A stretch of DNA of 64,000 nucleotides. Origin: an uncultured virus (IMG/VR IMGVR_UViG_3300027791_000011). Its lineage: Duplodnaviria > Heunggongvirae > Uroviricota > Caudoviricetes. Shown piece by piece: positions 43,605 through 49,895 of this stretch. The notes beneath the pieces were generated by a model. The model was not told the origin of the DNA and made no database searches. It was given only the letters and a program-made list of their open reading frames with translations. The stretch lies in IMG/VR virus record IMGVR_UViG_3300027791_000011, one strand, 5' to 3'. A program made the position numbers and the translations under genes. Position 1 is the first letter of the stretch. Every line of letters starts with the position of its first letter.

Positions 43605-45578
43605 TTAATAGTGATTTTGATCAAACCAATCATTGGCAGAATTATCTTCTAAAACTTCTTTTACTTCTGCATTATAAAGTTCTCTCGTATGATACATTCC
43701 TATCATCAATGACATAACTCTATCAAAGTTGCCTTTATGGTTAAATTTTATTAATTCTGTTATAAGAGCCGGATCATTTATAGTGTGTAGATTTAAATAT
43801 GTATTACCCTCAGCATCTTGACTTCTAGGTGTAATTAACCAATCTCTTATATAAAGCTCTCCTTGACGTTTCCGTGCTTCTGTCATATGCATTCCATATT
43901 GTCGTCGTACTTTTCTAGATTGCAATTCTCTTTTATCTAGCATTTCAAACTCTTCTTGTAGTCTGTGTAACTTTCTATGTCTTTTTGCATAAGCAATTAC
44001 TTCTCCTCGATCATTCTCAAACCCAATTTTACATCCATAATAATCTGCTAGCATAAACATATTTCTATTAAATTCATCTGATGTAGATGGCCTCCCTACA
44101 TAAGAAGCTACTATCATATCATCAGGAGTGGATATATTGTTTGGTCGTTTTATAATAAATACACTACCTAAAGATTTAGAATCTGCTGACTGACTTTGTC
44201 CATAAGGATCATGACAAGCTACGTATAAATTAATAGGTACTTGTTGTTTAGCGTTTTTATATGGAGACTCCCAAATTACAACACATCCTGAATTGTCATC
44301 ATCTTTTTTATGTGGAAATTTATGAACTGGCTTTAAGTTGGGATTAGGTTTAAATTTTATTTTTGAACTCTCTCCATAATATAATTCTCCTGCTATGCCT
44401 AAAGAATCTAAATTGTGTACTTGAATTTTATTATATTGTTCTTTTAAACTAGCTATATCAAATAAATTTGCACTTACTTGTAGTGTAGCTTCATTAGGTG
44501 AGTAAGGATGCTCAGCTATGTATTGGTCTAATGCTTTTGGATCAGAACTGCCTTTCTTCTTTTCTCTTTCTGATTCTTGGAAGACTCTAGATTCTGCTTC
44601 TAAAGAATTCCCATCATCATCCATAAAACCATCTAAGTTTTCATATATTGGAATAAAATAACCACACGTAGTTCCCATAGCTCCTTCATCCCACACATTC
44701 TCATAGTCCATACAATCATATGCTGCTGGATTATAAAATATTTCTTCCATAGCTTCAAAGTCATTTCCTTCAGTACCTCCTGTACCAAAAGCTACCATAG
44801 TACCTAGTGTTTTGTTTCCCTGTCTCATTGTTGGCATGGTTACTTCCCAAGCTTTTAATAATCCTGGGAACGACCCTGCCTCTTCAAAAAATACTAGCTC
44901 TCCCGCTTTACCCCTTACTTTATCTGGAGCATCTTTTAATGATACTCCCATTATTTGAGATTTCATACCTAACTCTACTTCAACACCATTAACTTTCTTT
45001 TTATACCCAGACATTTTACTCATCTCTCTATCTCGCAACCGTGGTTGAGCCCAAGCTGTGTTATCATCTATAAATGATAAAAATTCCCACGCTTTAGATA
45101 AAAGACCATCTCCAATTAAATATTCTTTCTGTCCTGCAAATACAAAGTTCTTAGAGTTTCTTACATGGAAATAATTACGAGCAAGCATAGACCCTGCTTT
45201 ATAAGAGTATCCCTTACGCCTTGCTTTTAATACAATCATATGTCTATCACTTTTTCTAGCTTTATTTATTTCATGAAAGTATTTATAATCTCCGTCGTAA
45301 AAGGATGGGAAGGTTCTATCACGTTTTGCTTGCATAGTTCCATCTGGTAATAGTACATCTACAGCCCTATCAATAGGACAATAATTTAAATAAAAATAAT
45401 GAAAGCCAGTAAGATAAATACCATCAACTGTGTGTCCATGTAAACATCTATTTCTTTCTCTGTCCCAAAATTCATAATAATCTTTAGTTCCAGGTAAAGC
45501 TGTAGTATATACTTTATGTTCTTTAAAGTAGTTTGCTGCTTTACTAAACTTAGAAGTATCTTTAAATTTCTTCTCCAA
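43605..45578 (-). CDS. terL: Terminase large subunit
   Basis: LKARRKGYS Walker A, FFEEAG Walker B, GTGG, and nuclease motifs HDPY...DRVMSL. Confidence 0.92.
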   Translation of the reverse strand: MEKKFKDTSKFSKAANYFKEHKVYTTALPGTKDYYEFWDRERNRCLHGHTVDGIYLTGFHYFYLNYCPIDRAVDVLLPDGTMQAKRDRTFPSFYDGDYKYFHEINKARKSDRHMIVLKARRKGYSYKAGSMLARNYFHVRNSKNFVFAGQKEYLIGDGLLSKAWEFLSFIDDNTAWAQPRLRDREMSKMSGYKKKVNGVEVELGMKSQIMGVSLKDAPDKVRGKAGELVFFEEAGSFPGLLKAWEVTMPTMRQGNKTLGTMVAFGTGGTEGNDFEAMEEIFYNPAAYDCMDYENVWDEGAMGTTCGYFIPIYENLDGFMDDDGNSLEAESRVFQESEREKKKGSSDPKALDQYIAEHPYSPNEATLQVSANLFDIASLKEQYNKIQVHNLDSLGIAGELYYGESSKIKFKPNPNLKPVHKFPHKKDDDNSGCVVIWESPYKNAKQQVPINLYVACHDPYGQSQSADSKSLGSVFIIKRPNNISTPDDMIVASYVGRPSTSDEFNRNMFMLADYYGCKIGFENDRGEVIAYAKRHRKLHRLQEEFEMLDKRELQSRKVRRQYGMHMTEARKRQGELYIRDWLITPRSQDAEGNTYLNLHTINDPALITELIKFNHKGNFDRVMSLMIGMYHTRELYNAEVKEVLEDNSANDWFDQNHY

Positions 45579-47540: not shown

Positions 47541-47795
47541 TTATTTCTTTAGTTTTCTTATTTCTATTTTAGCTTTACCATCATTAATTAGTATCTTAGC
47601 TTTAGTGGATTGTATGTTATACTTCTCTATATGCTCATCCATTCCGTACCTTGTACATAAATAAGATAAGAATACTTCTAGCTCATATGAAACTTCTTGA
47701 AATTTTTTACGTAATTCTAAAGTTTTAATAACTTCAATTTTTAAATCCTCATAATCTTTAAGACTAATAGTAACTGTTCCAGCTATAGTTTTCAT
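47541..47795 (-). CDS. Hypothetical protein
   Basis: ORF in operon with TVTISLKDYEDL start. Confidence 0.55.
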   Translation of the reverse strand: MKTIAGTVTISLKDYEDLKIEVIKTLELRKKFQEVSYELEVFLSYLCTRYGMDEHIEKYNIQSTKAKILINDGKAKIEIRKLKK

Positions 47796-48073
47796 TACAT
47801 TACTCCTAATACTAGATGTTCAGGAGCCATAACATAACTCTCTTCATCTATAATTACAATGTGTCCTTTTCCTGCTGGATCTAACATAACGGTATCACCC
47901 TTCTTAACCCATTGCACTTCTGGGCCAACTTCTAATACTTCTAGAATATTTGTTTTCATTGCTTCTTTAACGGAATCAGGCAGAATTATACCGCTCTCTG
48001 TTTCTTCTTTTCTTGGATCAGGCATTATTATCCAACTCCTAACAGGTTTAAATGTGAATTTTTTCTTTGTCAT
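47795..48073 (-). CDS. groES: GroES-like co-chaperonin (cpn10)
   Basis: FKP..., ETESGIILPDS mobile loop, VLEVGPEVQWVKKGDTV and terminal VLGVM. Confidence 0.85.
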   Translation of the reverse strand: MTKKKFTFKPVRSWIIMPDPRKEETESGIILPDSVKEAMKTNILEVLEVGPEVQWVKKGDTVMLDPAGKGHIVIIDEESYVMAPEHLVLGVM

Positions 48074-48096: not shown

Positions 48097-48129
48097 CAAA
48101 GATATAAAAAGTTTTGTTACACTTCCAAA
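48097..48129 (-). promoter_or_regulatory. Bacteroidota housekeeping promoter for the groES operon
   Basis: TTTG (-33; 48126-48129), a 21-nt spacer, then TATCTTTG (-7; 48097-48104). Confidence 0.8.
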
Positions 48130-48147: not shown

Positions 48148-48187
48148 AAATAAAAAATGGGTAGCAAATTTCTTTACTACCCATCTC
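48148..48187 (-). terminator. Rho-independent terminator
   Basis: ATGGGTAGTAAA-GAAA-TTTGCTACCCAT followed by TTTTTATTT. Confidence 0.85.
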
Positions 48188-49040: not shown

Positions 49041-49064
49041 AATTTCTTTGGTTTTTATTTTAAG

Positions 49065-49318
49065 TGTGAAGAGGATATAGTTATCCCCCTATGATTTCTA
49101 TTTTCAAACTTGGATTTCACTCTAGTAGTTCTCCTTATTAAGGGACCCAAGGATGCTATTCTCGTTGTTAATTCAACACACTTACTAATGTGGTTATGCA
49201 CCCTACCTAGAACTTATACACTTGTTCTTTTGTAACTACCGGAGAAAACTCTATCTCTATTTGAGACTACAACCCGATGTCTTTCCCCATTTTTGGTTAC
49301 CGTGGGGTGATATTGTTA
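49065..49318 (-). ncRNA. Putative structured RNA / long 5' leader, family unknown
   Basis: ORF-free, directly downstream of a TATCTTTG promoter, with at least 8 nested helices whose G-U pairs fit the minus strand. Confidence 0.6.
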
Positions 49319-49323
49319 CGATG

Positions 49324-49331
49324 CAAAGATA
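49324..49331 (-). promoter_or_regulatory. Bacteroidota -7 promoter element
   Basis: TTTATATCTTTGCAT, identical over 15 nt to the groES promoter core. Confidence 0.75.
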
Positions 49332-49502
49332 TAAACTTTATTTGGAATAAAAAAACAAAACTAAAAAAAAATTAATGTGGAGAGTTAGTGAGAGCGTGAT
49401 CCACCTCAAAGCGTAACCCCTGTGGGAATTAAGGAATTGAAGGTACTCCCTCCAATTTCCGATTTTTGAATTTTAGAATATTAACCAATTTAATTATATA
49501 TT

Positions 49503-49856
49503 ATGAACAAATTAACAAACTATGTAGAGTTTACGTCAGACAAAGATACTAAGAAGTATTTTGATGAAGTAAAGAAGAACAACCTAAGTGTTATAGGGCA
49601 GTCGTCAGAAAGTCCATTAGATTTAGGAGAGTACAAAGCATCTATCACAGGTAACAAAAACAGAATAGTAGGTAAAACAGGTGAGAATGAATGGTGTATT
49701 TTCTTGATGGAAGTAAAAGTAAAAGGTGGAAGTTTTAGTGGAGTAATGGATAAAATTCCATTCAACCCAACTACCAACTACAAAAAGAATTCAGTTATAA
49801 ACTTTGAAATTTACAAAGATAAAAACGGGTTGAAACGTGGAAGATTAGTAAACTAA
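49503..49856 (+). CDS. First early-arm gene, hypothetical (possible OB-fold)
   Basis: A-rich leader, beta-rich, ends INFEIYKDKNGLKRGRLV and has its own terminator. Confidence 0.6.
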   Translation: MNKLTNYVEFTSDKDTKKYFDEVKKNNLSVIGQSSESPLDLGEYKASITGNKNRIVGKTGENEWCIFLMEVKVKGGSFSGVMDKIPFNPTTNYKKNSVINFEIYKDKNGLKRGRLVN

Positions 49857-49863
49857 CAAATTG

Positions 49864-49895
49864 AAGGAAGGGGAGAAATCCCTTTCCTTTTTTTT
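49864..49895 (+). terminator. Rho-independent terminator
   Basis: AAGGAAGGGGA-GAAA-TCCCTTTCCTT followed by a T run. Confidence 0.88.

Follow-up and report, generated by a model that had tools for sequence, protein, structure and literature searches.

What lies at the strand switch of a crAss-like phage, where two gene arms diverge across a region with no recognizable gene, and what might it do? Few viruses of the gut and the sea are as abundant as the crAss-like phages, yet to our knowledge their RNA biology is almost entirely unexplored. We analyzed a stretch of 64,000 nucleotides (hereafter, the window) that contains such a region. The window belongs to a crAss-like phage: its minus strand encodes a large terminase (43605–45578), a portal protein, a major head protein, and a protein of 2256 aa, and its plus strand encodes a family A DNA polymerase. 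The terminases of the nearest GenBank phages are at best approximately 41% identical to that of the window at the amino acid level, which indicates a lineage without a close sequenced relative in that collection. A nucleotide search of the GenBank phages with a 1.8-kb query from the window gave no match, and the public runs containing the stretch are labeled marine or seawater metagenome. A gap of 462 nt (49041–49502) separates the diverging genes P0001 (minus) and P0002 (plus). No open frame spans this gap on either strand, and stops occur in all frames.

A preliminary description of the window had proposed a self-contained unit here, consisting of a promoter, a structured RNA of about 250 nt, a gene, and a terminator. 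The promoter, the ORF-free leader, the gene, and the terminator hairpin were all found where it had placed them (Table 1). The promoter has the form TAnnTTTG, which we take to be the Bacteroidota-type consensus, and a TTTG at 49356–49359 on the minus strand may be its −33 box. The terminator of the P0001 unit was read by eye; our terminator scan admitted loops of 3–8 nt and therefore did not list this hairpin, which has a 12-nt loop. At the 3′ end of the RNA, the hairpin 49070–49089 is present in the window and the U-tract is absent, as had been described, and the scan lists no intrinsic terminator there. The leader had also been called more GC-rich than its flanks. Its G+C content (0.34–0.38) does exceed that of the AT-rich flanks (0.19–0.31) and is about equal to that of the coding flanks, so the statement holds for the former alone.

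Table 1. Coordinates of the features discussed, in window positions except for the three chromosomal islands.
Feature	Position	Strand	Basis or remark
−7 promoter box TATCTTTG (TAnnTTTG)	49324–49331	minus	sequence
Exact 11-mer TTATATCTTTG, including the −7 box	49324–49334	minus	exact-match search
Structured RNA as modeled, 261 nt	49063–49323	minus	R2 match, 271 bits; predicted start near 49318
Domain 1	49232–49319	minus	P1 encloses hairpin P2 and P3; P3 bears hairpin P4
P1	49315–49319 / 49232–49236	minus	92.8% of cells paired, 5/5 pairs covary (91 sequences)
P2	49304–49308 / 49284–49288	minus	91.8% of cells paired, 5/5 pairs covary (91 sequences)
P3	49273–49278 / 49238–49243	minus	100% of cells paired (91 sequences)
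P4	49263–49266 / 49254–49257	minus	99.1% of cells paired, 4/4 pairs covary (91 sequences)
P5 hairpin, conserved GUAUAA loop	49209–49228	minus	weakly supported; 3′ strand overlaps P10
Domain 2	49121–49211	minus	P10 encloses P6 and P9; P6 bears hairpins P7 and P8
P10	49207–49211 / 49121–49125	minus	98.3% of cells paired, 5/5 pairs covary (91 sequences)
P6 (AGGGTGC/GCATCCT)	49198–49204 / 49150–49156	minus	98.2% of cells paired, 7/7 pairs covary (91 sequences)
P7	49190–49193 / 49178–49181	minus	98.0% of cells paired (91 sequences)
P8	49174–49177 / 49164–49167	minus	100% of cells paired (91 sequences)
P9	49143–49145 / 49132–49134	minus	90.4% of cells paired (91 sequences)
3′ element	49070–49090	minus	near-invariant AGGGGGA (49084–49090); hairpin 49082–49089 / 49070–49077
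P0001, 277 aa	48207–49040	minus	insertion separating the RNA from the next promoter
Terminator hairpin of the P0001 unit	48151–48184	minus	8-bp stem (48177–48184 / 48157–48164), 12-nt loop, T-run; read by eye
Second promoter, 11-mer TTATATCTTTG identical to that of the RNA	48097–48107	minus	ahead of the GroES-like gene
GroES-like gene	47795–48073		downstream of the second promoter; Cpn10 match, 1.6e-09
P0002, 117 aa, no family	49503–49856	plus	single-gene unit; own strong terminator 49863–49890
Second conserved non-coding block	49352–49470	unassigned	same intergenic region; conserved blocks in 10 relatives
Island G003 (L237/L238)	C6:131–142 kb		integrase, Sak4-like ATPase, RNA, GIY-YIG endonuclease, then PRTase/ORC-CDC6-like/CARF6/methylase
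Island G140 (L233)	C1:~504 kb		integrase and ParB-methylase, at the border with ParA/ParB/DapB
Island G294 (L243)	C9:~24 kb		integrase, HTH_17 excisionase-like gene, then RNA; next gene convergent

We collected 80 terminase-anchored and 2 P0001-anchored loci and searched them with the 462-nt intergenic region using nhmmer. The region was matched in 44 of the 82 loci (33 distinct sequences), and the conserved core corresponds to approximately 49073–49335 of the window. Over this core the nucleotide identity was 70–83%. The terminases of the matched loci were 69–78% identical at the amino acid level, the closest relatives excepted, and the GroES-like protein, which is the next conserved product downstream, was just 38–66% identical among relatives. 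These values indicate that the non-coding stretch is the best-conserved feature of its neighborhood. The variability by codon phase was 0.180, 0.166, and 0.186, which shows no codon periodicity; with stops in all frames of the window and no excess variation at third positions, a protein-coding gene was not found.

The helices were derived by eye from the alignment and then counted separately. In the 19 sequences of subfamily A, 53 pairs in 11 helices were paired in 91.7% of cells, compared with 39–50% for slid partners, and two-sided changes occurred in 23 pairs, compared with 3–7 for slid partners; none of the 500 shuffles reached this value. RNAalifold applied to the raw MAFFT alignment returned 16 pairs only, owing to differences between the subfamilies in the central domain. 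The full-length covariance model R2 gave 98 matches in 100 sources. In the resulting 91 distinct sequences, 91.3% of cells were paired (slid controls, 37–50%; 0 of 500 shuffles reached it), and two-sided changes were found in 45 of the 53 pairs, amounting to 656 cells against 23–120 in slid controls. This 91-row alignment was fitted to the model and is hence biased towards structure, and the MAFFT-based counts, which are free of this bias, are concordant. Conservation and covariation in relatives had been suggested as a check in the preliminary description, and both were observed over the 261-nt stretch.

The supported fold consists of two multi-helix domains followed by a 3′ element. Domain 1 was paired in 89.5% of cells in 82 representatives, compared with 35–58% for slid controls. 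Its junction strands, AGACAUCGGRUU and UCYCCGGUA, are invariant, and some subfamilies carry an extra hairpin, P1a, in this domain. The weak helices are P5 (60% of cells paired; 77% in the 19 sequences; 51–60% for its inner 2 pairs across the counts) and the 3′ hairpin, which was paired in 73.9% of cells in the 91 sequences, largely by G-U pairs. The AGGGG of the latter was almost invariant in the alignment from which the helices were derived. Of the nine helices drawn in the preliminary description, eight (P2, P4–P9, and the 3′ hairpin) recur in relatives, most of them with covariation. The ninth, a long-range stem (49234–49244/49120–49130), has to be abandoned: 65.6% of its cells were paired, it showed no two-sided change, and 493 of 500 shuffles equaled it. 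One half falls in P3/P1 and the other in P10, and P1, P3, and P10 replace it in the supported fold. The assignment of the RNA to the minus strand, which had been argued from G-U pairs, is borne out by P3, where a U-G pair is kept in 91 of the 91 sequences.

The window sequence by itself gave a different result. The minus-strand minimum free energy was −53.9 kcal/mol, compared with a shuffle mean of −53.5 kcal/mol (z −0.08), and the plus strand gave a z of −1.49. Neither strand has a folding advantage, contrary to the expectation that the leader would fold better than chance. For the window sequence, the fold supported by covariation has an energy of −38 kcal/mol, which is above the minimum free energy and explains the null z-score. 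The structural signal arises from comparison alone.

We compared the RNA with known classes. No Rfam 15 model matched the window at its gathering score. At E ≤ 10, the sole overlapping match was a 10.6-bit hit on the plus strand (gathering score, 70.3) that touches the 3′ edge of the RNA. When 20 diverse members were searched against Rfam at E ≤ 1, the only match was an 18-bit Intron_gpI hit on the other strand and outside the RNA. ARAGORN found no tRNA or tmRNA gene in the window. With respect to a group I intron, no Intron_gpI match falls on the RNA, and the feature upstream is a promoter and not an exon. Likenesses by eye to cobalamin-riboswitch, 16S rRNA, and boxA motifs were dropped because no Rfam model matched. 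In our literature search, which covered listings and passages of the preprint on phage phi14:2, the RNA was nowhere described. The RNA is thus unrecognized as any of these classes, as first supposed, and the proposal of a new phage non-coding RNA stands: it is structured, uncatalogued, read from the minus strand behind a presumably Bacteroidota-type promoter, and located at the divergence point.

We scanned contigs with an exact pattern built from the two invariant junction strands. At least 120 viral contigs and at least 120 metagenome contigs matched; most of the matches listed were marine, and at least one was a human-gut contig. One of the RNA-bearing sequences, G155, is a complete gut crAss-like contig of 122,866 nt in which a strand switch 11.5 kb ahead of TerL holds the RNA, and the terminase of this contig is 32% identical to that of the window. 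Model R1 gave no match in phi14:2, crAss001, or cr60_1, and only weak, unconvincing matches (E ≥ 0.009) in cr125_1 and cr1_1. In 185,579 species genomes the pattern matched 14 times against an estimated chance expectation of about 30, and 3 of these matches were real according to nhmmer and R1, with the other 11 due to chance. Two further R1 matches among 151 Flavobacteriaceae genomes were rejected as false, as they lie inside coding genes, one of them FeoB-like. The three real matches are RNA homologues in Bacteroidota chromosomes, each beside an integrase in a chromosomal island (Table 1). No protein is common to the three islands and the window (BLAST, 1e-3), the terminase of the window has no match in the RNA-bearing islands, and scans with Pfam and NCBIfam found no replication genes in them. 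These results indicate that the RNA family is large and uncatalogued and is carried by Bacteroidota mobile elements, namely crAss-like phages and integrative islands. That it constitutes a new structured RNA family of such elements seems secure. In island G003, the RNA lies upstream of a GIY-YIG endonuclease and a PRTase/ORC-CDC6-like/CARF6/methylase cluster that resembles a defense operon.

RNA libraries contain contigs that overlap the RNA. Metatranscriptome X17 holds contigs 100% identical to the phage, with a depth of 76 for P0002 compared with 2–8 elsewhere, and this unevenness argues for RNA and against DNA carry-over. One X17 contig (48903–49167) covers the 3′ part of the RNA, crosses the 3′ hairpin, and enters the start of P0001, and the 5′ two-thirds of the RNA are uncovered in this library. 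A 161-nt contig of a close relative in X19 corresponds to 49141–49301, and a contig in X18, which is probably DNA, to 49141–49318. These low-depth contigs are blind to ends and levels, so that neither the gaps in X17 nor the low shares in X19, X20, and X18 are a sign of absence. The contigs give weak support to transcription and read-through of the RNA.

The surroundings of the RNA were compared across a pooled set of 143 distinct sequences with full flanks, and the flank counts use the 114 unique members with enough flank. A TAnnTTTG box lies upstream in 97 of the 114, at a median of 233 nt (IQR 229–236) before the 3′ AGGG. A second TAnnTTTG follows 25–130 nt past the AGGG in 59 of the 114; in the sequences inspected, it is accompanied by a TTTG −33 box and a GroES-like gene. 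In 51 of the 114, an ORF follows directly without an intervening promoter and starts 12–75 nt past the AGGG, which makes the RNA a 5′ leader as well in these members. A run of at least four T follows the 3′ hairpin in 45 of the 114.

In all 29 related terminase-anchored loci, the terminase-side arm begins with the RNA. What follows it varies: a second promoter with a GroES-like gene, an amidase gene, or other unrelated ORFs, and the directly following ORFs (amidase-like in subfamily B, a Zn-ribbon protein, P0001, and others) are unrelated to one another. P0001 has no PHROG, Pfam, PADLOC, or PDB match, and a homologue of P0001 occurs in only 1 of the 29 related loci (L016), so that the gene is known from two loci, the window and L016. 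The suggested partnership with, or control of, this β-rich protein is therefore not upheld, and the self-contained unit of promoter, RNA, gene, and terminator is real in this phage and its closest relative and is not a trait of the family. Subfamily B (L072, L098, L129, and others) has a central domain shorter than elsewhere.

Complexity of this order usually marks an RNA as a ribozyme, a riboswitch, or an RNP core. We favor, with roughly an even chance of being right, a stand-alone RNA gene of about 240 nt whose folded product acts on a host machine. This reading is preferred since the downstream gene is variable, a separate promoter follows the RNA in about half of the members, and no element-encoded protein accompanies it. 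Because neither a downstream gene nor an element-encoded protein is conserved with the RNA, the RNA itself would be the active agent, acting in trans on a machine of the host and not on the adjacent gene. In the scheme that we infer, the host RNA polymerase would start a few bases before P1, and the 3′ G-run hairpin would stop part of the transcription, with the remaining transcripts continuing downstream, here into P0001. The folded RNA would be the active product and might act on the host machine as a stable RNP, a decoy, or a ribozyme. Several observations speak against a stand-alone product: the position at the head of the gene array in 29 of 29 loci and in G155 is what a cis role predicts, the RNA doubles as a 5′ leader in 51 of 114 members, a T-run follows in just 45 of 114 members, behind a hairpin that is poorly kept (73.9% of cells), and the window sequence taken alone folds no better than its shuffles. 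It is conceivable, though we hold it rather improbable, that the RNA represents a new catalytic or machine-like class of about 240 nt, common to the lytic crAss-like phages and the integrative islands of Bacteroidota, that needs host factors only, namely a self-processing ribozyme, a reprogrammer of the host RNA polymerase, or a protein-independent RNA-primed origin.

The head position is also what processive antitermination in cis would entail, in which the nascent RNA would ride the host polymerase through the terminators of the approximately 45-kb late arm or of an island operon. The models for such a role are put and EAR; put of phage HK022 and EAR (eps-associated RNA) are structured RNAs that come first behind a host-type promoter of a long operon and need no phage protein. 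By analogy, the crAss-like RNA occupies the same head-of-operon position (29/29 loci, and the strand switch in G155), the genes behind it in islands G003 and G140 are co-directional, no element-encoded protein is required, the identity of the next gene is irrelevant, and an RNA-library contig crosses the 3′ hairpin into P0001. However, a full promoter stands 25–130 nt past the RNA in 59 of 114 members, in the window with an identical 11-mer, so that most late transcription need not traverse the RNA, and in island G294 the next gene is convergent. The RNA also bears no likeness to put (about 70 nt, two stem-loops) or EAR (about 120 nt), whereas it has about 240 nt in two multi-helix domains, has no Rfam match, and often has a second promoter behind it. 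We regard antitermination as a possibility with a modest chance at most. The same strand-switch location would suit a replication origin, where the RNA would act as primer or activator in the manner of ColE1 RNA II, with the G-run seeding an RNA-DNA hybrid that is processed and then extended by the family A polymerase. ColE1 RNA II is a transcript of the host polymerase that depends on its fold, carries a G-run, and acts at an origin working without an element-encoded initiator. The analogy could extend to the G-run near the 3′ end, which is invariant in the crAss-like RNA, and to the location. The cumulative GC skew turns inside the profiled 47–51 kb stretch, at the strand switch, AT-rich runs adjoin, and a mechanism that requires no element-encoded protein suits islands in which Pfam and NCBIfam find no replication gene. 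In 5 records, the type of DNA polymerase was uninformative as to the presence of the RNA: a family A polymerase is encoded by the two RNA-bearing phages that were checked and also by crAss001, which has no RNA match. Gene orientation explains the skew turn equally well, and the invariant junctions and ten covarying helices exceed the needs of known primer RNAs. The junctions suggest a more specific three-dimensional fold than that of ColE1 RNA II. An origin function is doubtful in our judgment.

A cis-regulatory leader of the downstream gene, riboswitch-like or translational, would turn the G-run into a sequestered ribosome-binding site or a part of a regulated terminator. This would fit the 51 of 114 members in which an ORF starts 12–75 nt past the AGGG across a promoter-free gap, and above all subfamily B, where the G-run lies 15–17 nt before the ATG of the amidase-like gene (MREINRIIIHCS...), with a hairpin and no promoter between them. 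A gene-specific leader fits only this subfamily. The 51 directly following ORFs are mutually unrelated, the downstream genes share no function, and a promoter intervenes in 59 of the 114, which is not what a riboswitch or leader of one gene would give. Moreover, GGAGG never replaces the G-run among the members listed, the start regions of P0001 and of the GroES-like gene are A-rich and without a Shine-Dalgarno sequence, and the pairing of the 5′ segment with the 3′ element was −8.3 kcal/mol for cognate and −8.0 kcal/mol for non-cognate combinations (p = 0.37). A leader function as the general role is very unlikely. The view that there is no functional RNA at all, and that the region is a conserved DNA site or hides a small protein gene, could appeal to the stop-free stretches of 35–72 codons on one strand or the other in 19 sequences and to the window sequence folding no better than its shuffles. 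It would leave the compensatory changes in 45 of 53 pairs and the U-G pair of P3, which all 91 sequences keep on a single strand, without an explanation, and it sits badly with the absent codon periodicity and the stops in all window frames; we give it hardly any credence.

The favored stand-alone RNA can be set beside other RNAs of mobile elements. Like the pRNA of phi29, it is a structured phage RNA that has a promoter of its own and lies on the arm running toward the packaging genes. Its structure is unrelated to that of pRNA, and the large terminase and portal of crAss-like phages are of the classical kind. Islands without a match to the terminase of the window carry the RNA as well, which counts against a packaging role. 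Packaging and late-gene timing, both floated in the preliminary description, are guesses. GOLLD and ROOL, which we take to be among the Rfam models, are objects of the same kind, that is, complex, covarying RNAs carried by phages and without an assigned function; the crAss-like RNA is smaller, has so far been found only in elements of Bacteroidota, and matches no Rfam model. For phi14:2, a marine crAss-like phage of Cellulophaga, abundant long non-coding intergenic RNAs have been reported in the part of the preprint covered here (bioRxiv 10.1101/2020.03.07.982082). Like that of the window, they are intergenic, and they are described as highly transcribed; as given there, they map to the g004–g006 junctions and are transcribed rightward together with the early genes, and R1 has no match in phi14:2. 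The gene-free stretch of 1.7 kb in that genome (L217, 2905–4601) is likewise reported in the same part of the preprint as highly transcribed, many small ORF annotations having been removed from it; R1 does not match it.

The RNA offers a testable handle on the use of host machinery by crAss-like phages, and the same handle on islands that may depend on these phages or defend against them. It is a candidate for a new Rfam family, which would better annotate the seemingly "empty" intergenic region at the strand switch. If an RNA-primed origin were true, elements without replication genes could replicate.

The other side of the gap also holds conserved sequence. P0002 was considered as a conserved partner of the RNA and rejected, as its homologues occur in only 2 relatives, the closest ones. 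The block at 49352–49470 was rejected as a second structured RNA, with just 5 predicted pairs and 0 compensatory changes in 10 relatives. In these 10 relatives the block ends in an A/T run, and in the window it overlaps the site where the promoter of P0002 must necessarily lie.
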